DNA of 61,011 bases, filler included. It is 3 parts of 3 records of this genome, joined end to end, with 100 filler letters (N's around TTAATTAATTAA, not from the genome) between each part and the next. Parts side by side here need not be neighbours in the genome. Positions count along the whole stretch, not along the records: positions 31,853 to 54,075 come from SRR31156797_4691; 2 more parts are not named here. The stretch is one strand, 5' to 3'. Positions within the stretch are counted from its first letter, which is position 1. Each line of letters starts with the position of its first letter. The notes beneath the pieces were generated by a model. It had not been told where the DNA came from. It did not search any database and saw nothing but the letters and a program-made list of their open reading frames with translations. Made by a program: the position numbers and the translations under genes. This document shows positions 29,880 to 44,591 of this stretch, piece after piece.

Positions 29880-31751
29880 CTAATCGTTTAAAAACTTGAG
29901 CTTTTCCTGAAGCACCTCCAGTTCCTTGCGGGCTTTTGCAATCTTCTTTTCAAACTCATCTTTAAACAGACTCGCTTTCTTGGAATCGGCAAGGAAACCG
30001 ATGTTGTTTTCCCAAACGTTGATATCATCTCTCAACTGTGTAATCTTACCCTGTATAAAGCTGCGCTCACGGCCCAGTGACTTGTTGCCGTCACGTGATC
30101 CTTTAAGTACCTCCATTTTGGATTTGTAATTCTCCATGGAGACTTCAGTACTGCTGATGTTGAGCTTATCGAGTTGCTTATCCACAGCGCTCCTGAACTC
30201 GTTTTGCAGGCGGTCTTTTTCTTTGAACGGAACAAACCCGATGTCAGTCCACTGGCGCTGGAAACTTTTAAGTTTATTGAGGTTTTCGTTCCTGTCGGCA
30301 CCAAACTCAGTTTCCTGAACCAGTTTGATCAACTCTTCTTTCTTCTTCAGGTTTTCATTTTCCTCATCCCGGATACTTGAAAAATGCTCTGATTTGCGGT
30401 TGAAGAACTCATCGCAGGCTGCACGAAAACGCTTCCAGATTTTATCTGAGTGCTTGCGCGGAACCGGACCAATTTCTTTCCATTCCTTTTGCAGGTTGAT
30501 CAACTCACGGGTGGTCTGACGCCAGTCATCGCTGTCTTTGATGGCCTCTGCCCTTACACACAAATCAAGTTTCAGGTTATAGTTATTGATTTGCTGCTCT
30601 TTGAGCTTACCAAAATATTCCTTTTTATCCTTGAAAAACGTATCCAGGGTATTTTTAAACCGCTCCCAGATTTCGTCGTTTTGCTTTTTTGCAGCAGGCC
30701 CAATGGTTTTCCACACACCAAAAAGCTCGTTAAACTGTTTGGTTTTATTCTGCCATTCCCTTATGGTTTTCACCTCGGAAGGCAACAGCTCTTCGGCTTT
30801 TTCGCAAAGGCCAACCTTGGCCTCATAATTTTTATCGTGTTGGTCCTGTAGTTGCTTGTAGTGCTCACGGCGACGCTGATTGATCTTATCGGTGGTTGAT
30901 TTAAACCGCTCCCACAGGTCTTCATTTTTATCTGCCGGAACCGGCCCGATCTCTTTCCACTTTTCGTGCAGGCGTTGGAGTTCCTTAAAGGATTTTATAA
31001 TAGAATTTTCAAGTAATAGCTCTTCTGCTTTTTCGCAAAGCTCGATCTTCTGTTCCAGATTTTTCTTCAGATCAAGATCCTTTAATTCTTTATTGATCTT
31101 CACCTTGTCAAAAAACTTCTCAACCAGGAAATGGTAATTCTGCCAAAGGTTGTTTACCTCCGACTTTGGAACCATACCAATGTCCTTCCAGCGTTCCTGC
31201 AACTCCTTGAAATCGTCGTAGGTCTTTTTCAGGGTTTCTTCAGAAGCGATCAGGTTTTTTAAATCCTCGAGAATTTGTTTCTTTTTGTCCAGATTAACCA
31301 GTTTCTCCTTTTCAAGGTTTTCGAGGAAAATGGCACGCTTCTGCTTGTAAATGTCGAACAGCTCATTGAACTTTACTTCCAGGGGATCTTCCACCGGCTT
31401 TGCTTCGGCCTTCTCATCATCATCTTTATCATCACCCGAAAGTGTCTCGTCGATATGTGCTTCTTTTTCTGCTTTTGTTTTTTTGATGTAGGTAACCTTT
31501 ATTTGCGACACTTTCGATTTTATCGCATTCACATCATCAGCACCAACCAGTTCCTCAAGTTGCGCAATAAGTTCTTCACGCGAAAGGCTGTTATAATCCA
31601 CAGTTTCATCATGCTCATGATCCTCATCATCATCTTCATCATCATGATGTTCATCGTCCACCTCCGCTACCTCAGCGTTTGCTTCCGTAGATGCTTTTTC
31701 CTCTGCTTTCGGTTCTGGCTTTTCTTCTGTCTTTTCAGCCTCAACAGTTTG
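29880..31751 (-). CDS. DUF349 repeat protein, 5'-truncated by the contig end
   Basis: Repeated LQ..WK.IGPVP......W.RF motifs; the frame stays open to the contig edge (QTVEAEKTEEKPEP...), so 31661 is not the true start. Confidence 0.9.
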   Translation of the reverse strand, partial: QTVEAEKTEEKPEPKAEEKASTEANAEVAEVDDEHHDDEDDDEDHEHDETVDYNSLSREELIAQLEELVGADDVNAIKSKVSQIKVTYIKKTKAEKEAHIDETLSGDDKDDDEKAEAKPVEDPLEVKFNELFDIYKQKRAIFLENLEKEKLVNLDKKKQILEDLKNLIASEETLKKTYDDFKELQERWKDIGMVPKSEVNNLWQNYHFLVEKFFDKVKINKELKDLDLKKNLEQKIELCEKAEELLLENSIIKSFKELQRLHEKWKEIGPVPADKNEDLWERFKSTTDKINQRRREHYKQLQDQHDKNYEAKVGLCEKAEELLPSEVKTIREWQNKTKQFNELFGVWKTIGPAAKKQNDEIWERFKNTLDTFFKDKKEYFGKLKEQQINNYNLKLDLCVRAEAIKDSDDWRQTTRELINLQKEWKEIGPVPRKHSDKIWKRFRAACDEFFNRKSEHFSSIRDEENENLKKKEELIKLVQETEFGADRNENLNKLKSFQRQWTDIGFVPFKEKDRLQNEFRSAVDKQLDKLNISSTEVSMENYKSKMEVLKGSRDGNKSLGRERSFIQGKITQLRDDINVWENNIGFLADSKKASLFKDEFEKKIAKARKELEVLQEKLKFLND

Positions 31752-31752
31752 A

Positions 31753-31852
31753 NNNNNNNNNNNNNNNNNNNNNNNNNNNNNNNNNNNNNNNNNNNNTTAA
31801 TTAATTAANNNNNNNNNNNNNNNNNNNNNNNNNNNNNNNNNNNNNNNNNNNN
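31753..31852. other. Artificial contig spacer (N44-TTAATTAATTAA-N44)
   Basis: Exactly 100 bp with stop codons in all six frames; identical to the second spacer; composition and taxonomy change across it. Confidence 0.97.
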
Positions 31853-31898
31853 AATCCGGCGTCCACTTCCATAAAGAAGGGGAAAAAAGGAGGACGTC

Positions 31899-31997
31899 AT
31901 GTTGCTTAAAAGTTACAGAAAAGAGATATTCCGGCCCGAATGCAATCCGGGATTCCAATCGGTACACTGCATCGCCCATCTGGATCAGGAAGATTGA
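31899..31997 (+). pseudogene. Truncated remnant of a deltaproteobacterial Fe-S-cluster-domain/metal-binding protein
   Basis: Strong RBS AGGAGG, then MLLKSYRKEIFRPECNPGFQSVHCIAHLDQED-stop; resembles the N-terminus of a longer family ending in a LPxTNCxxCG Fe-S motif (recognised from memory). Confidence 0.55.
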
Positions 31998-32083
31998 TGA
32001 ATATATTTTCATCATGAACCGGGCTTATCCGGCGGCCTGTGAACCGCCAGCCGATGAAATACTGGAACCCATGATTTTACGCG

Positions 32084-35000
32084 TTAAACCGAATCCGTAA
32101 CGGCATCTTTGTTCTGATTGGGTCTTCTCTCAATCCAATCCATCATGGCGGGAATGACAAAGAGCGTCAGCAGGGTGGAGGTGGCAAGCCCGAACACCAC
32201 CACAATGGAAAGGGGCCGCTGCACTTCCGATCCCATACCCCGGGAAAGCAGCAACGGCAACAGCCCCAGGATGGTGGTGGCGGCCGTCATGAGGACCGGT
32301 CGCAGCCTGAGCATCCCCCCTTCCAGGATGGCGTCCATCGGTTTTCGGCCTTCAACCATCAACTGTTCGATGGTACTGACAAGGACCATACCGTTTTGAA
32401 CGGCGATGCCGAAGAGTGCGATAAACCCCACGGCCGCTGGAACGGACAGGTATTCACCCATCACATACAGACCGATGATACCGCCGGTGAGGGCCAGGGG
32501 AACGTTCAGAATAATCACGAAAGCGTGTCTAAAGGTCCCGAAAGTCATCCAGAGCATGATGAACACCGTGAAAATCACAATGGGCACAATCACCATGAGA
32601 CGCGCCACGGCCCGCTCTTGATTTTCAAACTGCCCACCGTATTCGATGGTGTATCCCGGGGGTAATACCACCTTTTGTGCAATCCGTTCACGGATCTCTT
32701 TAAACACGCTCCCCAGATCCTTTCCCCGGATATTCCCGTACACAATCCAGCGACGCTGGTTTTTTTCACGGCTGATCTGCATGGGTCCTGTCACCCGGCT
32801 GATTTTCGCCACCCGGGAAAGGGGGATCAATGACCCGTCCCCCGTGTGAACCAGTAACGCGCCCAGCGTTTTCGGATCCTCCCGGTAGGGGGCCTGGTAG
32901 CGGATATGGATGTCGAATCGCCGGGTATTGAGGTAAATGCCGTCAACGGCCTCTCCCCCCACGGCCAGTTCCACGATTTCAAGGATCTGGGACACGGTGA
33001 TCCCGTACCGTGCACAGGCGGCCCGGTCCGCAATCACCTGAACCTGGGGCTGCCCCAGGGCCTGCTCCGTGTTCAAATCCACCAGGCCGGGGACATCCTC
33101 AATGGCCTCCTTGATTTCAAAAGCCTTTTCCTTCAGTACCGCCAGATCCTCACCGAAAATTTTGATGGCCACCTGGGCCTTGACCCCTGACAGGAGTTCA
33201 TCAAACGCGTTCTGTATGGGCTGGGTGAAATTCAGTTTCGCGCCTTTATAAGCGGAAAGATCCCGATGCAGGGCCTGAACAAGCGCTTTCTTGTTTCCCC
33301 CTGAAGGCCATTCTTCCATGGGCTTCAACTCAACGTGGATCTCAGCGTAGTTGACGGGATGGGGATGACTCCCTGCCTCGGGACGACCGATGCGGGAAAC
33401 GGTTTCCGACACCCCTTTGTGCCCCTTGATAAGGCGCTCCATTTTCATGACCGTTTCGGATGCCCTTTCCAGGGAAATGGAAGGGGCCATGGTGACCCCG
33501 ATCATAATGGAGCCTTCCTCCAGGGTGGGAATGAATTCCGTTCCGATCAGGGGCAGTACGGCAAGGCTTGAAAGAAAGAGGATCAGGCTCAAGCCCATCA
33601 CCATAAATTTATTTCGAAGGGCACCTTTGAGCAAAGGCTCATAAAGCCGTTTTAATATCCTTGTGAACCGGAACTCACTTTTATTGTCCCCCTTGAGCAA
33701 AAAGGAGGATAAGGCCGGTGCAACAAAAAGAGCACTCAGGATGGATCCGAACAGGGCGAAGCAAATGGTGAATGCCATGGGGGTAAACATCTTCCCTTCC
33801 ACATCCTTAAGGGAAAAGATGGGAAGAAAAACGATGATGATGATGGCAATGGAGAACAGAATGGGCCGGCTCACTTCCCTGGCCGCCTGTAGGACCGTGT
33901 TGATCCGGCCCGCGTTGGATACCCCTTTCCGGTTCAGGTGGCGGTGGATGTTTTCCACCATGACGATGGCCCCGTCCGCCAGCATGCCGATGCCGACGGC
34001 AATCCCCCCCAGGCTCATGAGATTGGCGGAAATGCCGTATATGCGCATAAAGATGATGGATATGAGGGCGCAGATGGGGAGGGACAGGGCAACGATAAAG
34101 GCTGAACGCAAGTTACCCAGGAAAATCAAGAGGGTTGCCATGACCAGCAGCGCCCCCTGGACCAAGGCTTTTTTGATGGTCCATGTGGCCTGGCGCACCA
34201 GTTCCGCCTGCTCGTAATAGGGATGGAGGGTCACCCCGGGGGGCAGGGACTGTTTGACTACCTCAACTTTCCGGTAAAGATCTTCAATAACCCTGGAACT
34301 GTTTTCCCCGAACAGCTTGAGCACAATACCGGAAACCACTTCCTCCCGGCCGTTGTGCGTGACCACACCCCTGCGGATGGCGTTACCATAACCTACCCGT
34401 GCCACATCTTCCATGCGGATGGGAACCCCCTCAATCACCTTAATGGGAATTTGTCTGATCTCATCCAGATTTTTCAGAAGCCCGATACCCCTGACCAGGT
34501 GCTCCTCGGCCCCCAGCACCAGGAATTGCCCCCCGGCGTTTCGATTGTTTTCCCGGACCGCCGCAATGACATCCTCGAGTCCGAGGTGGTATTTTTGCAG
34601 GGCAAGGGGATCCACGCGAATCTGGAATTGAAGGACATGCCCCCCCATGGAAAGGATATCCGTGACGCCCGGTACCGTGCGAAGCTGAAATTTGACCACC
34701 CAGTCGTTGATTTCGCGCAAGTATGTTCCGGGGTCTTTACCATGCGTGTCAATCCCTTTCCCAAGGGTCAGATAGTATATGAAAACCTGTCCGAGACCCG
34801 TGGATATGGGGCCCAGTTTGGGCGCTTCTTCCATATGGGGCAGTTCCGATGCAGCTGCTGCAAGCCTTTCACCCACCAGCTGTCTTGCAAAATAGATATC
34901 CACGTGGTCTTGGAAATAGACGTAAATGACAGCCATGCCGAAGGCGGATGTGGACTTGATCAGGGTCACATGGGGGAGACCGTTCATGGCCGACTCAATT

Positions 35001-35203
35001 GGGTAGGCGATCAAACGCTCCACCTCTTCAGGGGCCATGCCATGGGCCTCGGCAAAAACGGGGACCATAATGGGCGATATATCCGGAAACGCTTCAACGG
35101 GCATTTCACGGTATTCATAAATGCCGAAAGCCAAGATCCCGATGATGGCCAGAAGCACCATTGAGCGGACTTTAAGAACGGTTTCAAGGAGTTTATTGAT
35201 CAT
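32084..35203 (-). CDS. czcA: CzcA/CusA-family heavy-metal RND permease
   Basis: EAFPDI, APEEVE, ANLMSLGG, DGAIVMVEN, GFIALFGIAVQNG, RLRPVLMTA; ATG 35203 preferred. Confidence 0.93.
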   Translation of the reverse strand: MINKLLETVLKVRSMVLLAIIGILAFGIYEYREMPVEAFPDISPIMVPVFAEAHGMAPEEVERLIAYPIESAMNGLPHVTLIKSTSAFGMAVIYVYFQDHVDIYFARQLVGERLAAAASELPHMEEAPKLGPISTGLGQVFIYYLTLGKGIDTHGKDPGTYLREINDWVVKFQLRTVPGVTDILSMGGHVLQFQIRVDPLALQKYHLGLEDVIAAVRENNRNAGGQFLVLGAEEHLVRGIGLLKNLDEIRQIPIKVIEGVPIRMEDVARVGYGNAIRRGVVTHNGREEVVSGIVLKLFGENSSRVIEDLYRKVEVVKQSLPPGVTLHPYYEQAELVRQATWTIKKALVQGALLVMATLLIFLGNLRSAFIVALSLPICALISIIFMRIYGISANLMSLGGIAVGIGMLADGAIVMVENIHRHLNRKGVSNAGRINTVLQAAREVSRPILFSIAIIIIVFLPIFSLKDVEGKMFTPMAFTICFALFGSILSALFVAPALSSFLLKGDNKSEFRFTRILKRLYEPLLKGALRNKFMVMGLSLILFLSSLAVLPLIGTEFIPTLEEGSIMIGVTMAPSISLERASETVMKMERLIKGHKGVSETVSRIGRPEAGSHPHPVNYAEIHVELKPMEEWPSGGNKKALVQALHRDLSAYKGAKLNFTQPIQNAFDELLSGVKAQVAIKIFGEDLAVLKEKAFEIKEAIEDVPGLVDLNTEQALGQPQVQVIADRAACARYGITVSQILEIVELAVGGEAVDGIYLNTRRFDIHIRYQAPYREDPKTLGALLVHTGDGSLIPLSRVAKISRVTGPMQISREKNQRRWIVYGNIRGKDLGSVFKEIRERIAQKVVLPPGYTIEYGGQFENQERAVARLMVIVPIVIFTVFIMLWMTFGTFRHAFVIILNVPLALTGGIIGLYVMGEYLSVPAAVGFIALFGIAVQNGMVLVSTIEQLMVEGRKPMDAILEGGMLRLRPVLMTAATTILGLLPLLLSRGMGSEVQRPLSIVVVFGLATSTLLTLFVIPAMMDWIERRPNQNKDAVTDSV

Positions 35204-35249
35204 ATTTTCTCTCTTTTTCTTAGGTGTCTTGTGAATCTTTTCCGTCCAC

Positions 35250-36572
35250 TCAGTGCCCGTGCCCCGCATGGCTGTCCATTTTATCGGTCGTGAGCGCGGC
35301 TTTCAGTTCAAAAGCTCCTTCAGCCACATAGCGGTCTCCCGTGGACAAACCTGAAATAATCTCCACATGGGTTTCATCGGATCGCCCCGTGGCAATCACC
35401 TTTCCTTCAAACCCACCTTCCACTGGAACGAATACCATGGATTCCTCCCCGATACGCTGAACCGCTTTTTTGGGAACCATCAGGGGGATGTCTTTTTCTC
35501 CGGCCTTGATCCTGGCCTTCACGAACAGTCCGGGCCGCCACCGCCCATCCGGATTGGAAAGGGTCGCACGCCCAATGGCCGTACGGGTTTCCCGTCCCAC
35601 AAGCGGCGCAATGAACGTGAGCCTGCCCGTGGCGGCGGGCATGGGTTCATCACCCCGTATGTGGACGGCCATACCCTTTTTCAAATGGGGCAATTGTTTC
35701 TGGAGCAGGTTGATCCTCACCCAGACGGTATTCATATCCGCCACCCGGTATACGGAAGTGGTGCTTTCCACCATTTCCCCAAGAGACAAATTTTTTTCCA
35801 GGATCTGCCCATTCAAGGGTGAGACGATCTCATAGCGGGTAAGGGAGGCATCCGCCCGTCGAGGCAACCTGTCAATGGCAGCCTTGGAGAGACCCAAAGC
35901 CATGAGCTTCTGCCGGGCGGACCGCGCCTCTATCCCGGCACCGGAGAGGGCCGTCTTGCTTGCCAGATAATCCTGCTCCGGCGATATCTTTTTTCGCCAG
36001 AGGGACTCTTCCCGCTCAAAGGTCTTCTCCGCCAACAATACCCGCTCCCGGGCCGCCAGGTAGGCGGCACCGGCATCCGCCAGCTCGCGGCTCTCCAGAA
36101 CCGCCATCACATCCCCTTTTCGGACCGCATCTCCCTGGCGTTTTTTGATTTCCCTGACATAACCCGATACGTACGGCGTTACGAGGGCATGGGCGTCATC
36201 ATTGAGGATAATCTCACCGGGCAGGGTCAATGCTGTTTCCAGTTTCCCCGGGCCCGCTTCCGCCACCACAACACCCAGCGCCCGGATCTGATCTTGACCC
36301 AGCAGAACATGGTCTTCATCCGGATGGGTGGGTTCGGGTTCATGGGAATCATGTCCCTGCGCCTGTTCCCGGTGCTCCGGTTGCTCCTCATGTTCCCCTT
36401 CATCATGACCCTTTTCCCCATGACCCTCGTCGTGATCACGGACTTCTCCCTGAAATGGATGGAAAACAGCCGTGCGCCCATAATAGAGGGCACCAATAGC
36501 GGCCGGAACCGCCACAGCCAAACAGATCAAAACCATTTTTCCTATTTTCACGGGACAACTCCTTTTTTCCAT
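35250..36572 (-). CDS. czcB: CzcB-type membrane fusion protein with His-rich segment
   Basis: TM anchor, His/Glu-rich tract, LPGEI, WRPGLFV, C-terminal HAGHGH. Confidence 0.9.
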   Translation of the reverse strand: MEKRSCPVKIGKMVLICLAVAVPAAIGALYYGRTAVFHPFQGEVRDHDEGHGEKGHDEGEHEEQPEHREQAQGHDSHEPEPTHPDEDHVLLGQDQIRALGVVVAEAGPGKLETALTLPGEIILNDDAHALVTPYVSGYVREIKKRQGDAVRKGDVMAVLESRELADAGAAYLAARERVLLAEKTFEREESLWRKKISPEQDYLASKTALSGAGIEARSARQKLMALGLSKAAIDRLPRRADASLTRYEIVSPLNGQILEKNLSLGEMVESTTSVYRVADMNTVWVRINLLQKQLPHLKKGMAVHIRGDEPMPAATGRLTFIAPLVGRETRTAIGRATLSNPDGRWRPGLFVKARIKAGEKDIPLMVPKKAVQRIGEESMVFVPVEGGFEGKVIATGRSDETHVEIISGLSTGDRYVAEGAFELKAALTTDKMDSHAGHGH

Positions 36573-37885
36573 TTTTCAGCCGCCGAAACCAGTGCATCCA
36601 TATCAAGACCGATCAACCGCTCCACCTGTGTCCGGGCCTGCTGGTATGAGAACAGGGCATTGATGTGACGCAAATTCACGGATACCAGGGTTCTCTGGGC
36701 ATCCAGCAGATTCAGGTAGTCAAATTTCCCATGGCGAAACCCTTCTTCAGACGCCTTGAAAGCCGCTTCAGCCCCGGGCAGCACATGCTGCGCCAGATCG
36801 GTGGCCTCCATATGGGCCCGGGACAATTCCTGGTATGTTTCGGCCAGATTGTTGACCACCCGCAGCCATACGGCCCTCGATTCCTCTTTTGACTTGCTCA
36901 ACCTTTCCCGGGCCTCAAGGGTGGCACCCTGGTTGTAATCGAAAATGGGGATGGGGATGGACACCCCCATGACAAAGGCCGTATCGTCCACCTCATTGTG
37001 GTGTTTGGCCCCCATACTCACCGTCAAATCGGGGACACCCCGGGCCTCCTCCAGGTCCACGCCGGCGCGGTGCTGCTCGATGGCCACGGCCCAGCGGGCC
37101 ACATCCGGGTTTCGGGACACCATTTTTTCCAGTGTCTCCAGGGAAGGGAGCGGCATCAGCTTCCCCAGGCGGCCGCTGGCTTCCCCGAAGGTGGGGGTCG
37201 TCCCCCCCCAGGACCCTGAAAGCTTTCTTCGAGCCACCTTCAGATCATACCGGGCGTGTTTTACATCGATCCGGGATGTGGAACGGTCAACCTCCGCCTT
37301 CACCGCTTCCACGGGAGAAATTTTTCCGGCCTTCACCCGTTCCGAAGTGGTCTGAAGGACTTCATCCGCCAGATACAGCAGTTTTCCCATGAGGTTCAGA
37401 CGCTCCTGGGCATACAGCACGCCTATAAATGCCAGTCGCGTCCGGGCCACCACATCCGCCCGTGTCACCTCATAATCCAACTGTGCCAGATCACGACCCA
37501 GGAGTGCATGGGTACTCCTTTTGGCGCGTTTCCCTCCCAGCTCGATCAACTGGCTCAACTGCACCGTGGTCTCGGCCGCATCAAAGCCTTTGAATACCCC
37601 CGAGCCGGCGAAGTTTTCCGTTTCAGCCTCAATTTCGGGGTTGGGAAGGAGCCCCGCCTGAAGCACGCGCCCTTCCATGGCACGCCTTTCCCAGCGTGAG
37701 GCGTTCAATTGGGGGTTGTTTTCAATGGCCAGGGCAATGGCTTTTTGAAGGGTAACGGGGCTTCCGCCGAAATCGAAAGCTGGTGAAGGAACCTCTGCAC
37801 GGACATCCGGGTGAAACCAGGCGAATAAAAAGAATAACAGCAACCCCCGGAACAAATCAGGGAATCCGGATTTTTTCAGGTACAT
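36548..37885 (-). CDS. czcC: CzcC-type TolC outer-membrane efflux protein
   Basis: AGLLPNP, LSQLIELGGKR, SIPIPIFDYNQG, GKFDYLNLLDAQR. Confidence 0.9.
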   Translation of the reverse strand: MYLKKSGFPDLFRGLLLFFLFAWFHPDVRAEVPSPAFDFGGSPVTLQKAIALAIENNPQLNASRWERRAMEGRVLQAGLLPNPEIEAETENFAGSGVFKGFDAAETTVQLSQLIELGGKRAKRSTHALLGRDLAQLDYEVTRADVVARTRLAFIGVLYAQERLNLMGKLLYLADEVLQTTSERVKAGKISPVEAVKAEVDRSTSRIDVKHARYDLKVARRKLSGSWGGTTPTFGEASGRLGKLMPLPSLETLEKMVSRNPDVARWAVAIEQHRAGVDLEEARGVPDLTVSMGAKHHNEVDDTAFVMGVSIPIPIFDYNQGATLEARERLSKSKEESRAVWLRVVNNLAETYQELSRAHMEATDLAQHVLPGAEAAFKASEEGFRHGKFDYLNLLDAQRTLVSVNLRHINALFSYQQARTQVERLIGLDMDALVSAAEKWKKGVVP

Positions 37886-39943: not shown

Positions 39944-41137
39944 TCAGGATTCAATATACCTTTCGATTTCCGTTCTGGGAATCCCGAGACAGTACAAAAG
40001 ATGGATGATCTGATCCCCGTCCAGCATGCCATCCGTGGCAAAGTCTTTTTCCTCAGGTTTGAATGCGATGGAAAGCCCTGCGTTTTTTATGAAATGGGAG
40101 CGGATGGAGCCGTCTCCCACGGCAATGATCTGGTCACGGCTGATACCCTCCGCATCTCTGATGAAATCAAGGATCTCTTCCTTGGTGTCATCGGTAATAA
40201 TGGGTTCAAGCATTTGCCCTGTCATCTTCCCCGCCTCATCCACCTCCAGTGTATTTGAAAAGGCGTAGTCCACGCCCGCCTTCTGAAGGACTTCCTCCAT
40301 GAAGAGATCGATGCCCGATGAGAGGAGGGCCGTTTTGAACCCCATGGATTTCAGAATCCTGATCAACTCGAATGCATCCGGGTTTAATTGCAGGGCTTCC
40401 CTGAATCGCTCCAGCTCGGAGGCCGGAATCCCTCTGAGCCTTTCCACATGCCGGGAAAGTGTTCCGTTGTCATAAGCTGCTTCCCCACTGATACGATCAA
40501 TAAACCGCTTCAGTGAAAAGTCATGAAGCAGGGTGGTTTCCACATCAAACACCACGAGCTTTTTCATCTTACGATAGATATTTTCGCTCTGAATGACCAC
40601 GCCTTGACCCATCTCGTGGCACAGCGCTTTCAGCTCGGCTTTCATTTCAGAAAGGGCTTCCCGGCGTGTTGTCCCTTCCGTTTCGACCATTTTCCTTGTG
40701 TCTATGGTCATTTCCATGGAGAAGAATTTGCCCCGGGCGATCATTCTGCACGTCTCGATGTTGATGTGGTATCGGAGGAAAAATGAGGAAATTCGTGCGA
40801 TGATCCCCGGTTGATCAACCCCCAGGACCGTCACCAGATGGTTCTGCTTTCCAGGGGAGTGGGCAGGGTCCGTCTCCTCATAAATGCGAAACATGACACG
40901 AAGTTTTGTTTCTTTTTCAATATGTTTCAGCCGGTCCGCCAAGGTATCAGGGGAAAAGGGAGAAGCGGAAAAATCGATGATAAGGAAGATGGAGAAAAGT
41001 CCCCTGCGGGAGTTCTCTTCCACATCGATGATATTCCCGCCCATCTCAAAAATCCTCTCTGTAATAACCGACATGAGCCCCGGCGCATCAATGCCGACTG
41101 CCGAAAAACTGAAGGTTTTCGATATGTCACGCATCAT
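39944..41137 (-). CDS. ACT-ACT-HAD protein, SerB (phosphoserine phosphatase)-like with degenerate catalytic motifs
   Basis: Two ACT domains (GIDAPGL, GVDQPGI); HAD motifs FDVETT, LLSSG, K, AVGDGSIR. Confidence 0.8.
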   Translation of the reverse strand: MMRDISKTFSFSAVGIDAPGLMSVITERIFEMGGNIIDVEENSRRGLFSIFLIIDFSASPFSPDTLADRLKHIEKETKLRVMFRIYEETDPAHSPGKQNHLVTVLGVDQPGIIARISSFFLRYHINIETCRMIARGKFFSMEMTIDTRKMVETEGTTRREALSEMKAELKALCHEMGQGVVIQSENIYRKMKKLVVFDVETTLLHDFSLKRFIDRISGEAAYDNGTLSRHVERLRGIPASELERFREALQLNPDAFELIRILKSMGFKTALLSSGIDLFMEEVLQKAGVDYAFSNTLEVDEAGKMTGQMLEPIITDDTKEEILDFIRDAEGISRDQIIAVGDGSIRSHFIKNAGLSIAFKPEEKDFATDGMLDGDQIIHLLYCLGIPRTEIERYIES

Positions 41138-42051
41138 CCCTCCCCTTTCCGGCCCGCAAGGTTCTCTCTTTTATTGAAAAATACAAAGAGTTCTTCTTCA
41201 TAATATCTCCCATCAATGATCTGGCCCGGTGGAAATCTTTTCAGTCCTTTGTTCCTTAAAAACTTAAAGAATTTTTCATTGATGATTTCCAACGGTACAT
41301 CTCCTTTCAGCCAGTTCATGGGAAGATTTACATTGAGAGGACGCGCCGGAATAAGGTGCCTTGTTGCCTTCGGTGTGAACCGTTTGTTACGGTTCACGGC
41401 GTCCATAACCATTTCTTTGGAAATCCGCGGGGTCCAGAGGATCAGGTCATCTTTACCGATGGAATTTTGGCAATCTCCCGTCAATACCGACTGGCAGGGG
41501 ATATATTCAAGTTGATCGCCTTCATGTAAAAGCTGGTTCTGAAGGCGATTCGTCATGTGATAGGCACTCACCGCATCATGTACCGTTTCCTCGGGAAAAG
41601 CGATGAAGAAAAAACGGTCCTTGTGCTGAACCCCCAGATAAAGTCTGTTTTTTTCAAGCACCTTCTTGAGCTTAAACATGTCGGCTACCGGCTGCATGGT
41701 GGTGTTCAACGCCTGCATCAAGCCCTTGAGTTTGTCTGTGTCCCTGACCCTGGGAATGCAACGGAACCAGTATCTCAACTTAACGGTATGGTTAAAATAA
41801 TCAATCTTGCAAACCGGGATATAACGGAAATCCAATTTTTCTATGACGAAAGCCCTGTGGTGCCCGTCTATGACGGTGAACTTTTCATCGACAATGACCG
41901 GGTTCTGCAACAAGGCCCAGTTTCTCAACTGGAAGACCAATTGCTCGGTCTTTTGAGGGATGATTTGTTCATGCTGCCTCAGGTCGGTGACGGGCACGAT
42001 ATCCAAGTGCAAATGCATGTGGGTGGTCTTTATGGTAAACATTTTGCACAC
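41134..42051 (-). CDS. ParB/Srx-fold protein, SerK-like free serine kinase homolog
   Basis: HEQ, NPVIV, IDGHHR, IDYF...VKL..W, SKEMVMDAV...FTPKATRHLIP motifs in the same order as archaeal SerK; start GTG 42051 or ATG 42042. Confidence 0.75.
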   Translation of the reverse strand: MCKMFTIKTTHMHLHLDIVPVTDLRQHEQIIPQKTEQLVFQLRNWALLQNPVIVDEKFTVIDGHHRAFVIEKLDFRYIPVCKIDYFNHTVKLRYWFRCIPRVRDTDKLKGLMQALNTTMQPVADMFKLKKVLEKNRLYLGVQHKDRFFFIAFPEETVHDAVSAYHMTNRLQNQLLHEGDQLEYIPCQSVLTGDCQNSIGKDDLILWTPRISKEMVMDAVNRNKRFTPKATRHLIPARPLNVNLPMNWLKGDVPLEIINEKFFKFLRNKGLKRFPPGQIIDGRYYEEELFVFFNKRENLAGRKGEG

Positions 42052-42103: not shown

Positions 42104-43519
42104 TCATAAAGTACCTGAACCATCTGATCGTGGCAATTTGACAATAAAGGCGGAACCTTCCTTCAATCGGCTTTCCACATGAACCGTGCCCCCGTGGGCC
42201 TCCACAATGGCTTTGACGAAACTGAGACCCAGACCGAGGCCCCTCCTGGAGCGGCTGAGATCGCCACGATACAACCGTTCCCAGATTCTGGGCACCTCGT
42301 TTTCAGCAATACCCATGCCTTCATCGGACACGGATATCACAACGTTGGGGCCTTTTATTGCGGCTTCAACCTTGACTTTGCCGCCCTTCTCCCCGTATTT
42401 AAAAGCGTTGTCCAGAAGGTTGGCCAGGACCTGCTGGAGCCGGGTTCGGTCCGCAAGTACCATGAGCGTTTCATTTACATTCACGACCACTTCCGTATCC
42501 TGCTCTTCCGCCACAATTTCATAGAGATCCACCACATCGCGGATCATGTGGGATACGGACAGCCGGGTTTTGTCCAACCGCATGGCACCTGTTTCCGCTT
42601 CCGCCACATCCATGAGGGTATTGAGCATGGTCAATACCCGTTCCGATTCTTCCATGCAGTCGCCCAGGGCTTCACGGCAGGCTTCAAGGTTTTCGGGGTC
42701 CTGAAGGGCAAATTCCGCCACCCCCCGAAGGCGCGTCATGGGGGTCCGCAAATCGTGGGCCACATTGTCCAGGGAATTGTGCATGGCCTGAATCAGCAGG
42801 TCGTTCTTATCCAGCATTTGATTGAACAGACCCACCAGTTCATCCATCTCCCCCCTTTCCCGGCGGACCGGTACACGAAAACTCATTTCACCGGTTTTCA
42901 GAATATTCTTAACGGTCTCAATCAAATTCCGGATGGGCTTGATGGCGCGAAAAGTGACCATGCCGCCGCCGATTACGCCCAATAGAAGGATGGGAATCAT
43001 GAAGATCAAGAAAACGGTTCTGAAATAGGAGAGCAGTTCCCGGCTCCGGGCTGAACTTTTGCCCACCTGAAGGGTAATGCCGCCGGGGAACGCTGCCATG
43101 CCGACGGTCCAAGACCCCTTTTCAGCGGATCCTTCGAGAGAAAGCCAGAAATCCTTCTTACCCGGCTGAACGGCACTCAAACGGCGCGGATCCGGACCTT
43201 CAAATCCGGGAGGAAATTTCACAAACAGAACCTGGTTCAGGGGCCCCACAATACGGACGAAAAAGATATCACCGGCGGGATTGGCCTGTTCATCAAATCG
43301 GGCTTTGAGGGCTCGAATCCCCCCTTCCTCATACCACGCCCGGTATTCCAGGATCCGATCCTTTACAATCTCCTTTTCACGCTGTTCAACCAGGTTACCG
43401 ATCAGGTAATAGGCCACCAGAAAGAGTCCACCCGAAGCGATAACAAAAAAGAGCGCGTACAGTACGCTCAGTTTCAGGCTGAAGGTCAGCCCGATCTTGC
43501 TACTGCTCTTTGAGGACAT
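42104..43519 (-). CDS. HAMP sensor histidine kinase (CusS/CzcS-like architecture)
   Basis: Two TMs, HAMP, AHDLRTP H-box, NLLDNA, DEGMGI, GLGLGL. Confidence 0.92.
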   Translation of the reverse strand: MSSKSSSKIGLTFSLKLSVLYALFFVIASGGLFLVAYYLIGNLVEQREKEIVKDRILEYRAWYEEGGIRALKARFDEQANPAGDIFFVRIVGPLNQVLFVKFPPGFEGPDPRRLSAVQPGKKDFWLSLEGSAEKGSWTVGMAAFPGGITLQVGKSSARSRELLSYFRTVFLIFMIPILLLGVIGGGMVTFRAIKPIRNLIETVKNILKTGEMSFRVPVRRERGEMDELVGLFNQMLDKNDLLIQAMHNSLDNVAHDLRTPMTRLRGVAEFALQDPENLEACREALGDCMEESERVLTMLNTLMDVAEAETGAMRLDKTRLSVSHMIRDVVDLYEIVAEEQDTEVVVNVNETLMVLADRTRLQQVLANLLDNAFKYGEKGGKVKVEAAIKGPNVVISVSDEGMGIAENEVPRIWERLYRGDLSRSRRGLGLGLSFVKAIVEAHGGTVHVESRLKEGSAFIVKLPRSDGSGTL

Positions 43520-44174
43520 AACCCATACCGCGCACCGTTTGGATCAGTTTTTTATCAAAATTTTTATCGATTTTGTTTCGCAAACGGCAGACCAGCACAT
43601 CCACCACATTGGTCTGAGGATCAAAGCTGTAATCGTAGACATGCTCCAGAATGGATGTTTTGGAGACAATGCGGCCCTTGTTCCGCACCAGGTGTTCCAG
43701 GAGGGCAAATTCACGGGAAGGGAGACTGATCTCCTCTTCCCCCCGTTCCACCTCCCGGGTCAGAAGATCCAGGGTCAGGTCCCCGGCGTGAAGGGTGCTG
43801 GGTTCCGCAACCCGGGTTGATCTTCGTATGAGCGCCTGAATGCGGGCCAAAAGTTCGGAGAATGAAAACGGCTTGGTCATGTAGTCATCTCCCCCGGTTT
43901 GAAGCCCCTTGACCCGATCATCCACCGAACGCCTGGCGCTGAGAATAATAACCGGGGTGGTGATTTTTTTCCGGCGAAGCCTCTCAATGAGAGACAAACC
44001 GTCGAGCCCCGGGAGCATGATATCCACAACGGCCGCATCATAGGGCTCGGTCTGCCCCAGGTGTAGCCCATCCACACCATCGTGGGCCACATCCACGGCG
44101 AATCCTGCCTGTTTTAAACCATTTGCAACAAATGAAGCGATTTTATGATCATCTTCAACGACTAAAATTCTCAT
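43500..44174 (-). CDS. OmpR-family response regulator (CusR/CzcR-like)
   Basis: VVEDD, DIMLP phosphoacceptor, KPF, NVVDVLVCRLR, TVRGMGY. Confidence 0.93.
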   Translation of the reverse strand: MRILVVEDDHKIASFVANGLKQAGFAVDVAHDGVDGLHLGQTEPYDAAVVDIMLPGLDGLSLIERLRRKKITTPVIILSARRSVDDRVKGLQTGGDDYMTKPFSFSELLARIQALIRRSTRVAEPSTLHAGDLTLDLLTREVERGEEEISLPSREFALLEHLVRNKGRIVSKTSILEHVYDYSFDPQTNVVDVLVCRLRNKIDKNFDKKLIQTVRGMGYVLKEQ

Positions 44175-44194: not shown

Positions 44195-44235
44195 AAAAAA
44201 AAAGGGCGCTCTCCCGAAACCACGAAAGAGCGCCC
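44195..44235 (-). terminator. Intrinsic terminator after the cold-shock gene
   Basis: GGGCGCTCT / AGAGCGCCC 9-bp stem followed by a U9 tract on the minus strand. Confidence 0.8.
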
Positions 44236-44261
44236 CTGATACTCAAAAAAAATCGTTCAGA

Positions 44262-44462
44262 CTAACTTACCTTAACATTAGCAGCAGAAGGACCTTTCTG
44301 TCCCTGCTCAATATCAAACGTAACCTGGTCTCCCTCGTTCAGGGACTTGAAACCTTCCATAAGAATTGCAGAATGATGGACAAACACATCCGGACCATCT
44401 TCTTGCTCGATAAATCCAAAACCCTTTTGATCGCTGAACCACTTTACTGTTCCATTCGCCAT
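44262..44462 (-). CDS. Cold-shock protein (CspA family)
   Basis: [15 protein letters not shown]...[18 protein letters not shown]. Confidence 0.95.
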
Positions 44463-44591
44463 AGTGACATCTCCTTTTCTTTCCAAATAAATCCACACTA
44501 CCATACTTGCGGCTGCCACTTTGAAAATGGAATTTCGTCTGAGAACGAAGCCAGCCCACGAGCTAGGGGAGGAAAATTAATAATGGTTTGG

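Follow-up and report, generated by a model that had tools for sequence, protein, structure and literature searches.

A SerK/SbnI-family kinase homologue encoded next to a remodelled SerB2-type paralogue in Desulfobacterota: a candidate serine kinase with a dedicated partner

The DNA analysed here, referred to as the window, is a stretch of 61,011 nucleotides, filler included, in which three parts of one genome are joined end to end. Positions 31,853 to 54,075 derive from SRR31156797_4691 and contain two intact open reading frames on the minus strand. The upstream ORF (41134..42051) encodes a SerK/SbnI-family kinase homologue of 305 aa when read from the GTG at 42051. The downstream ORF (39944..41137) encodes a 397-aa ACT-ACT-HAD(IB) protein that Pfam, TIGR00338 and a tree identify as a paralogue of SerB2-type phosphoserine phosphatases with a remodelled active site. 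The 4-nt ATGA overlap noted in the preliminary description was confirmed from the ORFs: it lies at 41134..41137 (minus strand) and consists of a TGA at 41136-41134 and an ATG at 41137-41135. A second in-frame ATG immediately follows the first in the HAD gene, so the overlap is either 4 nt or 1 nt. At the other end of the pair, kinase homologues in the alignment begin at Met4 of the window protein, and the true kinase start is for this reason probably the ATG at 42042, yielding 302 aa, rather than the GTG at 42051. The −4 overlap recurs in loci L004, L006, L008 and L029, and spacing in most other paired loci, based on ORF calls, ranges from an overlap of a few nucleotides to approximately 190 nt. 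Such an overlap is frequent in operons and unremarkable on its own; the conserved adjacency is the part that exceeds chance.

The family of the upstream protein was evaluated using profile and structure searches. The protein matched the NCBIfam SerK model, NF053625, with an E-value of 1.2e-20 (73.7 bits; residues 16-248 against profile positions 16-243 of 244) and the SbnI model, NF033589, with an E-value of 1e-8 (34.9 bits; residues 11-109). The corresponding equivalog cut-offs, 380 and 350 bits, were both missed. SerK structures in the PDB were matched at E-values of 3e-12 to 7e-11 (1vk1, 3.2e-12; 5x0b, 1.1e-11), with query residues 20-244 aligned to chain residues 22-237. The AF2 model of the protein had a pLDDT of 93, and a Foldseek search with this model placed only SerK and SbnI structures at ranks 1-9 (E-values from 6e-16 to 1.5e-13; TM by target 0.67-0.79). 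Judged by sequence and predicted fold, the protein belongs to the SerK/SbnI family, as the preliminary description had proposed, and is not a DNA-binding ParB; by the profile cut-offs, it is an equivalog of neither characterised enzyme. Because its SerK score of 73.7 bits is far below the cut-off of 380, the identity of the substrate is not assured. The long-form family to which it belongs is both bacterial and archaeal and comprises 359 clusters at 50% identity (E = 1e-10 or better). In all, 406 homologues of the kinase and 595 of the HAD protein were counted.

It is extremely unlikely that the protein is instead a ParB-like DNA-binding protein or nuclease of non-metabolic function, lying next to the HAD gene incidentally. 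Some records do call homologues "ParB N-terminal domain-containing" or "ParB/RepB/Spo0J family partition protein", and there are weak PDB matches to the N-domain of pNOB8 ParB (E = 0.007-0.015). In the Foldseek search, however, DNA-binding ParB ranked after SerK and SbnI (E = 5.5e-5), with TM values of 0.23-0.27 and a match limited to the N-terminal Srx-like part. Clustering with DNA-binding ParB, which the preliminary description had named together with a lack of serine kinase activity as refuting its proposal, was not observed. No Pfam family matched the 305-aa protein at an E-value of 0.01 or better, whether ParBc, HTH or DUF1015, and the linkage to metabolic genes, described below, is kept across phyla.

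The motif series on which the preliminary description had based the comparison with SerK, HEQ, DGHHR, DYF and KE.VM..V....F.PK.TRH, is present in that order and aligns with the SerK proteins of Thermococcus and Pyrococcus. The first motif, H27-E28-Q29 (41965..41973, minus strand), places E28 opposite Glu30, the catalytic base of T. kodakarensis SerK; the correspondence follows from chain 5x0j, an E30Q variant with HQQ in place of the HEQ found in both the wild type and the query. The second, D62-G63-H64-H65-R66 (41854..41868, minus strand), is the ParB/Srx-type phosphate/nucleotide motif common to SerK, in which D62, G63, H65 and R66 are invariant. These are followed by D84-Y85-F86 and by K212-E213..V215-M216..V219....F225.P227-K228.T230-R231-H232. 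Across 28 kinase sequences, with identities down to 22%, H27, E28, D62, G63, H65, R66, K212, K228, R231 and H232 are all invariant. The protein ends in a C-terminal extension of approximately 50 aa (residues 245-295; 41167..41319, minus strand), delimited from the secondary structure of the model and absent from the 242-aa archaeal SerK.

SerK of T. kodakarensis (TK0378) is an ADP-dependent kinase of free L-serine (PDB 5x0b and related entries; 1vk1 for Pyrococcus). The window kinase shares with it the two-domain ParB/Srx-type fold, the HEQ motif with its catalytic Glu, the DGHHR, DYF and K..PK.TRH motifs and the proposed role of converting serine via phosphoserine to 3-phosphoglycerate. It differs in being bacterial, in being only about 18-19% identical in structural alignments and in its additional ~50 aa, which form a C-terminal beta-hairpin domain. 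Further, the long-form kinase has a dedicated SerB-like partner and, in relatives, clusters with glycine-cleavage system (GCS) and SHMT genes. SbnI of Staphylococcus is a free serine kinase and a regulator in staphyloferrin B synthesis that binds DNA and haem. The window kinase has the same fold as SbnI (PDB 5uje, 5ujd and 6nr6; TM by target 0.72-0.79) and matching N-terminal motifs; by contrast, sbnI lies in a siderophore operon, whereas nothing near the gene here relates to siderophores, and only the N-terminal domain matches in sequence.

The downstream protein matched the Pfam families ACT_6 (two stretches), ACT and HAD, and aligned over its full length with M. avium SerB (5is2; residues 13-392 against 9-390). 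It thus has the three-domain architecture of SerB2 from M. tuberculosis and M. avium (PDB 3p96, 5is2), including the conserved ACT ligand loops. Unlike that of SerB2, its gene always stands next to a kinase gene. Against the serB model TIGR00338, it scored 103.1 bits, under the cut-off of 144.15. Across five genomes, the kinase-linked paralogues scored 86.5-118.8 bits with this model versus 248.7-258.5 bits for the canonical SerB copies. The two ACT domains (approximately residues 10-85 and 99-181; 40595..41110, minus strand) carry invariant GxDxPG ligand-loop motifs, in which G15, D17, P19, G20 and G106, D108, P110, G111 do not vary.

The HAD domain departs from SerB2 in its catalytic motifs. 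Motif I is D198-V-E200-T-T (40532..40546, minus strand), with DxE in place of the phosphatase DxD (DxDx(T/V)), whose second Asp, at +2, serves as general acid/base. Among 120 homologues examined, 101 fit the motif I pattern and were scored; DxE was found in 100 of these. Motif IV is G341-D-G-S-I-R-S347 (40097..40117, minus strand), in which the Asn and second Asp of the canonical GDGAND are replaced by Ile and Arg, respectively. GDGS is present in every one of the 120 homologues, the next two positions vary (T/I/V/S.. and R/G/S/H/Q), and GDGAND occurs in none. The cap is also rewritten, including the helix-loop that recognises the serine moiety in SerB2; this helix-loop is 13 residues shorter in the subclade of the window protein. 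In the tree, the DxE proteins form one monophyletic group (support 100/100). The motif changes are fixed throughout a monophyletic family and are therefore not the result of decay. These motif counts, together with the Pfam matches and the SerB alignment, bear out the claim of an ACT-ACT SerB-like partner with altered catalytic motifs. Modelled by AF2 from few aligned sequences, this protein reached a pLDDT of 65.8 and a pTM of 0.47, too poor a model for a fold search.

The further claim that the partner looks catalytically crippled is not secure. Motifs I and IV are indeed changed, but the nucleophile D198, S274 of motif II, K319 of motif III and D342, the first Asp of motif IV, do not vary. 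Together with E200, these four make up the HAD core, and all five residues are invariant in 25 sequences in which 25% of columns are invariant, corresponding to a hypergeometric P of about 0.001-0.002. Moreover, ThrH, an active enzyme, also has DxE. ThrH of P. aeruginosa is the sole characterised PSP-group enzyme verified here with Glu at Asp+2 of motif I: its motif I is D-L-E-G-V in a ThrH orthologue (NF010109, 321 bits) as well as in PDB 1rku. PMC1079889 ascribes to ThrH both phosphoserine phosphatase and phosphoserine:homoserine phosphotransferase activities.

It is accordingly possible, though in our view doubtful, that the partner is itself an active, ThrH-like DxE enzyme, which would take the phosphate of phosphoserine onto its Asp as a phospho-aspartyl intermediate and then hydrolyse this under ACT control or hand the phosphate on to an acceptor alcohol. 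The pair could then constitute a reciprocally regulated kinase/phosphatase node allowing a reversible Gly-Ser-3PG conversion to proceed in both directions, or a serine-recycling relay in which Ser + NTP -> Sep is followed by Sep + X-OH -> Ser + X-P. The invariance of the core residues beyond expectation and the near-fixation of E200 favour such activity, and the predicted complex described below would suit channelling of phosphoserine. The Glu of motif I is, however, the only feature that ThrH and the partner have in common. ThrH is a single-domain protein of ~205 aa with neither ACT domains nor a kinase partner. It also retains the Asn-Asp of motif IV (GDSYND); the partner family has variable residues at both positions, which points to relaxed constraint there. 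The partner scored only 22.6 bits with the ThrH model, NF010109, for which the cut-off is 133. Gene context likewise suggests no acceptor, and homoserine is unlikely to be one because HomK is above cut-off in four of the five pair-bearing genomes. A related idea, that the kinase and DxE-HAD bypass ThrB by replacing homoserine kinase, was not supported: ThrB was above cut-off in 0/5 genomes but HomK in 4/5. Finally, canonical SerB, with DxD and GDGAND, is already encoded above the TIGR00338 cut-off in 4/5 related genomes. For the same reason we rejected a role of the pair in compensating for the serB gap known from sulfate reducers.

The pairing was next surveyed across genomes, the genome scan being seeded with a 12-sequence alignment. 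Of 44 Desulfobacterota loci, 37 have the HAD gene immediately after the kinase gene and five do not, the other two being untestable (37/42 testable). Among 401 genomes sampled evenly from the phylum, three contain the kinase. The same three genomes have an HAD copy of at least 56% identity adjoining the kinase gene, and 16 others have only copies of at most 36% identity. The adjacency on which the preliminary description had relied is therefore kept, in most of the testable loci and in all three carriers. The kinase is nevertheless not strictly dependent on the partner, as five loci have no adjacent HAD gene and, in three of the genomes concerned, the partner was not found at an E-value of 1e-10. 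A metagenome scan using the single protein yielded one distant locus, L091. The pair had been put forward as undescribed, and the literature searched indeed contained no description of it.

Complex prediction, which the preliminary description had suggested as a check, points to physical association of the two proteins. Three runs gave ipSAE values of 0.69, 0.75 and 0.75, and the best of three controls gave 0.00. The mark used in this test was reached by 51/78 solved complexes and by 2/108 mismatched pairs; it was also passed by 7/44 neighbour pairs drawn blindly. Contact agreement between runs was at least 87% and the pLDDT of the partner at least 82. The predicted contact is a hairpin within the C-terminal extension of the kinase (residues 271-281, KRFPPGQIIDG). 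Its motif, PGQ[IV][IV]xGRYY, is kept in the Desulfobacterota clade that has the partner and is specific to that clade; in archaeal relatives that lack the partner, the hairpin is altered or shortened. Based on these predictions, the partner probably binds the kinase.

In related loci, the pair sits among genes of glycine and serine metabolism. A GcvT-SHMT fusion is encoded directly upstream of the kinase in 22/40 testable related loci, and genes for GcvP, GcvH, Lpd and Lrp occur near the pair. In 10 related loci, an aminotransferase of the AGXT family is encoded downstream. The nearest known enzymes to it are alanine/serine-glyoxylate aminotransferases (1vjo, E = 9.5e-121) rather than phosphoserine aminotransferases. 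A PGDH is encoded inside locus L018 (591.9 bits, above cut-off), and the dehydrogenase of L066 scores 329.5 bits as PGDH. More distant relatives have a class-V aminotransferase neighbour in 13/35 loci and a PGDH-like dehydrogenase in 6/35; Makino 2016 reported the same types of neighbour for serK of Desulfurococcales. The cluster of glycine-cleavage, SHMT and aminotransferase genes in relatives argues for a metabolic role of the kinase, and the context fits a route from glycine via serine and phosphoserine to 3-phosphoglycerate. Such a route via SerK (Gly -> Ser -> Sep -> 3-PGA) has been proposed for T. kodakarensis (PMC11032457). The pair may thus feed serine into central metabolism via phosphoserine.

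We favour, with a probability of roughly 45%, a reading in which the upstream protein is a SerK-family serine kinase and the partner a docked sensor derived from SerB2, operating in most relatives in a glycine-to-3-phosphoglycerate route. The kinase, a bacterial long-form member of the SerK/SbnI family, would most likely convert L-serine to O-phospho-L-serine. The partner appears to have kept the phosphate/Mg-binding pocket and two amino-acid-sensing ACT domains while losing the features of an efficient phosphoserine phosphatase. It would dock on the C-terminal hairpin of the kinase as a regulatory subunit that hydrolyses phosphoserine barely or not at all, tuning the kinase to levels of serine, glycine or phosphoserine and averting a futile cycle with the separate canonical SerB of the cell. 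In most relatives, glyoxylate or glycine would be converted to serine by GCS and SHMT, serine to phosphoserine by the kinase, and phosphoserine to 3-phosphoglycerate by the aminotransferase and PGDH, if flux runs in this direction. The earlier argument that a kinase co-expressed with an active SerB would cycle futilely is reasonable, but decides nothing between a regulator and an enzyme of changed chemistry. Several observations weigh against the favoured reading. The invariant core residues and the DxE of ThrH both suggest that the partner is an active enzyme rather than a sensor only. The AGXT-like aminotransferase also fits a non-phosphorylated route. Further, five loci have the kinase without an adjacent partner, the glycine-cleavage context is absent from the window, blindly drawn neighbour pairs also pass the complex test at times, and that test made no use of our own alignments.

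In another reading, the kinase acts on a different small molecule of this metabolic neighbourhood: glycerate, at the end of a photorespiration-like route from glyoxylate via glycine, serine and hydroxypyruvate, or else homoserine or threonine. We consider this unlikely. The AGXT/SGAT-like nature of the clustered aminotransferase speaks for it, as do GlcD/GlcE-like oxidase genes (upstream of the kinase in L022 and L023, downstream of the cluster in L011), 2-hydroxyacid dehydrogenases that recur nearby, and the missed SerK equivalog cut-off. The kinase nonetheless keeps every residue common to the motifs of archaeal SerK and SbnI, the partner descends from a phosphoserine-binding enzyme, and the nearby dehydrogenases of L018 and L066 score best as PGDH. 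In archaea, class-V enzymes of the AGXT type serve as phosphoserine aminotransferases. By our own reasoning, moreover, L-serine and D-glycerate are not isosteric at C2.

A further reading inverts the reaction: the kinase would substitute for SerB by converting phosphoserine to serine while phosphorylating a nucleotide, assisted or backed up by the HAD protein, in an operon leading from 3PG via serine and glycine to C1 units. The other enzymes of the cluster, besides the kinase and the HAD, are reversible, and a proposed precedent is SerBK, a DUF1015 protein with a remote SbnI-like kinase fold that is encoded with serA and serC and complements an E. coli serB mutant (GapMind 2026, PMC13759103). 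SerBK poses the same question as the pair, namely what place a kinase has next to SerB chemistry. The same source gives the reverse reaction as thermodynamically unfavourable, with K of about 4e-4. The window protein, lacking any Pfam match at E = 0.01 or better, is not a DUF1015 protein and belongs to a different family. SerBK also replaces a missing SerB, whereas canonical SerB coexists here, in four of five related genomes, leaving no gap to fill. We judge this reversal very unlikely.

A further-reaching proposal can be put forward tentatively. The pair might be a heteromeric serine kinase whose SerB-derived subunit has become either a sensor of phosphoserine and amino acids or a module that transfers phosphoryl groups as ThrH does. 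Its reaction would be the point of commitment and regulation in a phosphoserine branch, hitherto undescribed, that takes glycine from a (reductive) GCS via SHMT to 3-phosphoglycerate in anaerobic Desulfobacterota. If so, bacteria would have a natural counterpart of the route that has to date been no more than a proposal for Thermococcus, and the reductive glycine pathway would gain another outlet, the third after serine deaminase and glycine reductase. The Fe-S serine dehydratase was above cut-off in 0/5 pair-bearing genomes. Only 3/151 genomes of the phylum carry this Fe-S enzyme, so its absence is uninformative and was discarded as support for the kinase route.

Kinases of free serine have been described from a small number of hyperthermophilic archaea and, in staphylococci, from the synthesis of a siderophore. 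Clear homologues of SerK were not found in bacteria according to Makino 2016. The data described here show that one Desulfobacterota clade of long-form kinases, whose genes lie in glycine-cleavage/SHMT clusters, has gained a SerB paralogue that is remodelled and dedicated to it. Should the biochemistry be borne out, C1/glycine assimilation would have a natural and ATP-economical connection to gluconeogenesis, joining it at 3-phosphoglycerate, and the pair would be an instance of a phosphatase converted to the partner of its opposing kinase. It would also supply a second data point, besides ThrH, on the effect of the Asp+2-to-Glu change in HAD enzymes.

The setting of the pair in the window is atypical: it separates a two-component system of the heavy-metal type from the efflux pump that belongs to this system. 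Directly upstream is a histidine kinase of the heavy-metal type (42104-43519, minus strand; TIGR01386, 227.8 bits, below cut-off), preceded by a response regulator (43500-44174, minus strand; TIGR01387, 258.2 bits, below cut-off). No terminator was predicted in the 52-nt gap between the histidine kinase and the kinase homologue, and the two-component genes may be co-transcribed with the pair. This context occurs in 0/44 related loci; the two-component genes are probably unrelated to the pair in function. Finally, one source annotates HAD proteins of the partner type as "phosphoserine phosphatase". This label is probably wrong, which bears on the automatic annotation of the family.

The pair consisted of two intact ORFs on the minus strand: the kinase homologue at 41134-42051 (305 aa from GTG) and the partner at 39944-41137 (397 aa). 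A 4-nt overlap, ATGA at 41134-41137, comprised the stop of the kinase homologue and the start of the partner, as the preliminary description had read. The true start of the kinase homologue is probably the ATG at 42042, because homologues begin at Met4 of the window's protein (alignment A1). The motifs that had been listed for this protein, H27-E28-Q29, D62-R66, D84-F86 and K212-H232, were indeed present and aligned with the same motifs of SerK, the free-serine kinase of Pyrococcus and Thermococcus.

The family and fold of the kinase homologue were evaluated using profile, sequence and structure searches. No Pfam family matched at E 0.01 or better. The NCBIfam model of archaeal SerK matched along its whole length (E 1.2e-20, 73.7 bits; residues 16-248 on profile positions 16-243 of 244), and that of SbnI, the staphylococcal free-serine kinase, matched over the N-terminal part of SbnI only (E 1e-8); both scores were far under the equivalog cut-offs (380 for SerK, 350 for SbnI). 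Using phmmer against the PDB, SerK chains (1vk1 and 5x0*) were found at E 3e-12 to 7e-11 and SbnI at 3.5e-7 to 1e-3, the best ParB N-domain reaching only 0.007. HQQ in the chain of the SerK E30Q mutant lines up with HEQ in the kinase homologue, which makes E28 equivalent to the catalytic Glu30. In an AF2 model based on a 28-sequence alignment (pLDDT 93, pTM 0.89), the top nine Foldseek matches in the PDB were SerK or SbnI without exception (E 6e-16 to 1.5e-13; TM by target 0.67-0.79), and next came DNA-binding ParB (E 5.5e-5, TM 0.23-0.27). Judged by sequence and predicted fold, the kinase homologue belongs with the free-serine kinases, which upholds the preliminary assignment; it did not group with DNA-binding ParB, the outcome named beforehand as refuting that assignment. 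Two homologues were automatically annotated 'L-serine kinase (ADP)' by one source and others were labelled hypothetical or ParB-like; beside the TM values, a ParB-like DNA protein is extremely improbable. The low equivalog scores count against the reading that we prefer below, and action on a different substrate is an improbable alternative.

A word-index protein search yielded 406 homologues at E 0.001 or better from 715 candidates, and an exhaustive HMMER scan against representatives clustered at 50% identity yielded 1014 at E ≤0.001, 359 at ≤1e-10 and 37 at ≤1e-30. Most members in the latter scan were about 280-300 aa, with alignments reaching query residue about 291. By these alignments, the family is a long form, the C-terminal ~50 aa being an extension absent from the 242-aa archaeal enzymes.

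The partner contained two ACT domains and one HAD-IB domain (Pfam) and aligned end to end with Mycobacterium avium SerB (residues 13-392 versus 9-390). Its score on the SerB model TIGR00338 was 103.1 bits, under the 144.15 cut-off. It differed from canonical SerB in motif I (DVETT versus DxDST), in motif IV (GDGSIRS versus GDGAND) and in a rewritten serine-moiety cap segment, which in the window's protein was also 13 residues shorter than in most of its family. Among the 120 best partner homologues, motif IV was GDGS plus two variable residues in all; the motif I pattern, too strict for 19 of them, matched 101, of which 100 read DxE and one DVDTT. Since DxE and GDGS are fixed across the homologues, the active-site changes are not decay. 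In a maximum-likelihood tree of hand-picked sequences, midpoint-rooted for drawing only, 26/26 DxE sequences formed one clade (100/100 support) on a long branch apart from six canonical SerB sequences of related genomes. The window's partner, P0121, P0123 and P0124 made up a subclade (100/100) sharing the 13-residue HAD-cap deletion, and the Arg of the NAR-x-LKG segment was not retained there.

Canonical SerB was above the TIGR00338 cut-off in four of five related genomes (248.7-258.5 bits), the ORFs reading DMDST or DCD[NS]T plus GDGAND; the kinase-linked paralogues of the five scored 86.5-118.8 bits. Because canonical SerB coexists, the partner appears to be a specialised paralogue distinct from the organism's SerB. 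The same count led us to reject the pair as filler of the 'missing serB' gap of some sulfate reducers, and beside it we consider it very improbable that the kinase homologue runs in reverse as a SerB substitute.

Conservation of the pairing was evaluated by scanning a single genome from each GTDB species, which gave 79 kinase-homologue loci. Forty-four of these (L001-L043 and L046; 40-65% identity) belonged to Desulfobacterota-type MAGs (among them Desulfatiglandales, 'Desulfobacteraceae' and Ca. Desulfacyla). By tblastn, the HAD paralogue lay directly 3' of the kinase homologue on the same strand in 37/44; two loci (L019, L041) ended too early to judge, and L021, L022, L034, L036 and L039 had none despite at least 2 kb of 3' sequence. 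In one of these five genomes a DxE paralogue lay on a separate contig (57% identity), one had only a 25%-identity match, and the other three had none at E 1e-10, which for MAGs is incomplete evidence of absence. When 401 genomes were sampled evenly across the phylum, three had the kinase homologue, and exactly the same three had a HAD with 56% identity or more adjoining it; 16 further genomes had only HAD copies of 36% identity or less. No HAD partner was found by tblastn in the 35 more distant loci (24-32% identity) from Bathyarchaeia, Nitrososphaerota, Micrarchaeota, Hadesarchaea and some bacterial MAGs. The adjacency noticed in the window thus recurs across its relatives.

Complex modelling of the pair gave ipSAE values of 0.69, 0.75 and 0.75, the best of three controls scoring 0.00; the mark used is reached by 51/78 solved complexes and 2/108 mismatched pairs, and by 7/44 blindly drawn neighbour pairs. 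The runs shared at least 87% of contacts, with partner pLDDT of at least 82, and our own alignments were not an input. To our knowledge, no SerK-SerB complex has been solved that the model could have memorised. The predicted interface joins a C-terminal hairpin of the kinase homologue (residues 271-281 and 283-295) to the HAD core of the partner beside motifs II and III (271-296, 309-314 and 321-329). The hairpin motif PGQ[IV][IV]xGRYYEEELFVF was retained across the partner-bearing clade; partner-less archaeal relatives had EGS..GSRRY or a shortened hairpin. Among partner-less loci, it was altered in L039, the most divergent, and retained in L034 and L036. This pattern fits co-adaptation with the partner, confounded by phylogeny.

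In relatives, the dominant neighbourhood held glycine cleavage system (GCS) genes. A GcvT-SHMT fusion (880-aa class) lay directly 5' of the kinase homologue in 22/40 testable loci, preceded by Lpd, and a divergent Lrp-type regulator, GcvH, GcvPA and GcvPB were nearby. The fusion, joining the glycine-cleavage T-protein to serine hydroxymethyltransferase over 880-900 aa, is at L001:3297-5972 and in 21 other loci; a literature search found no published description of it in these bacteria. In 10 loci the HAD was followed by an AGXT-family class-V aminotransferase (best PDB match 1vjo, E 9.5e-121). L018 had a bona fide PGDH (TIGR01327, 591.9 bits) a few kb off, homologous 2-hydroxyacid dehydrogenase genes were near the pair in L010 (205.9 bits, under cut-off), L033 and L042, and GlcD/GlcE-like oxidase genes in L011, L022 and L023. 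Of the 35 distant loci, 13 had a class-V aminotransferase and 6 had a PGDH-like dehydrogenase, frequently strung together with the kinase. Makino et al. described the same aminotransferase and dehydrogenase neighbours for Desulfurococcales serK and read them as supporting the assimilation of serine to 3-phosphoglycerate (PMC5120207). For T. kodakarensis, Michimori et al. proposed a route from glyoxylate to glycine, to serine (GCS and GlyA), to phosphoserine (SerK) and to 3-PGA, with 'phosphorylation preceding transamination and reduction' (PMC11032457). By gene content, the Desulfobacterota cluster places genes for most of this route side by side.

Our preferred reading, held at a probability of about 45%, is a serine kinase with a non- or barely hydrolysing SerB-derived sensor partner, feeding 3-phosphoglycerate. 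The kinase would phosphorylate serine made or delivered by GCS and SHMT, and phosphoserine would pass onward to 3-phosphoglycerate. The partner would bind the kinase, its ACT domains sensing amino acids and its altered pocket sensing phosphoserine or phosphate; it would hydrolyse little or nothing, so that futile cycling with the separate canonical SerB would be avoided. Against this reading stand the AGXT-like nature of the aminotransferase, the five loci with a kinase lacking an adjacent partner, and the window itself, which has no glycine context.

The sensor role is also opposed by an invariant HAD core and the precedent of ThrH. In a 25-sequence alignment, D198, E200, S274, K319 and D342 were invariant, as were both ACT ligand loops (GxDxPG); only 25% of columns were invariant, and a chance origin for all five core residues is unlikely (hypergeometric P about 0.001-0.002). 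A ThrH orthologue (NF010109, 321 bits), present in 7/151 genomes of the phylum, reads D-L-E-G-V at motif I, as does PDB 1rku. ThrH is active as a phosphoserine phosphatase and phosphoserine:homoserine phosphotransferase (PMC1079889), so Glu at Asp+2 is compatible with phosphoryl transfer. At motif IV, ThrH retains Asn-Asp (GDSYND), whereas the partner family varies at both residues, suggesting that this portion of the site is under relaxed constraint. The preliminary view of a crippled SerB is uncertain, and the evidence on activity is mixed. The main rival keeps the kinase role and makes the partner catalytic, either a regulated phosphatase in a two-way node or a ThrH-like phosphotransferase; we regard it as possible but rather unlikely.

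Among five pair-bearing genomes, ThrB was above cut-off in none and HomK was present in four (G001, G002, G004 and G150; TIGR02535, 484-498 bits), so a homoserine-kinase bypass by the pair, which we had considered, is superfluous. HomK possibly uses phosphoserine as phosphate donor (GapMind 2026, PMC13759103) and might also consume the kinase's product. Fe-S serine dehydratase was at cut-off in 0/5 and is rare in the phylum (3/151).

In the full-text literature searched, main articles with few subscription papers among them, neither the pairing of a SerK-like kinase with a SerB paralogue nor a serine kinase within Desulfobacterota glycine-cleavage clusters was described, in line with the preliminary remark on the pair. 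A passage in Makino et al. (2016; PMC5120207) states that clear SerK homologues were not found in bacteria, and a 2025 ParB-fold survey names SerK as an example only.

The window's arrangement around the pair was shared by 0/44 related loci. On its 5' side were a heavy-metal-type response regulator and histidine kinase (42104-44174), with a 52-nt gap before the kinase homologue in which no terminator was predicted; on its 3' side were a convergent ion-channel-like gene and then an RND efflux operon (32084-37885; OEP, HlyD-type and AcrB-type genes). The two-component system and efflux operon are kept apart by the pair, the channel-like gene and two unannotated ORFs, and an insertion of the pair may have split a regulator from its target operon. 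A strong terminator-like hairpin at 44202-44237 (minus; 15 pairs, 9 G-C, then a T run) separates a cold-shock-protein-like ORF (44262-44519) from the response regulator and is the likely 5' limit of a possible transcript through the response regulator, histidine kinase, kinase homologue and HAD. At roughly 32.1 kb (about 31600-32800), the 3' end of the AcrB-type gene, G+C stepped abruptly from ~0.40 to ~0.56. The left 32 kb (41-46% GC) had a Bacteroidota-like gene content (two T9SS Por_Secre_tail proteins, a TonB receptor carrying a CarboxypepD_reg domain, HmuY and DUF5723), and the right 29 kb (46-58% GC) looked Desulfobacterota-like; the step may reflect either chimeric joining or a large transfer.

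In L001, the closest complete-contig relative (65% identity), the partner gene shifts frame near codon 348, just past motif IV (L001:7930-7975), reflecting a pseudogene or assembly error, with no in-frame recoded stop. In one MAG, L042:4250-5731 is a single 466-aa ORF: the kinase homologue ends at about residue 249, before the C-terminal hairpin, and continues in frame as the partner from about residue 99, so that ACT1 is missing; a natural fusion or deletion and an assembly artefact at a KE(N)H microhomology are both possible sources. In the eight Bathyarchaeia-type loci (L045, L047, L048, L050-L052, L055 and L067), the long-form kinase homologue was followed by a conserved 105-121-aa protein matching no Pfam family and was preceded, in six of the eight, by the gene for ribosomal protein S17e.
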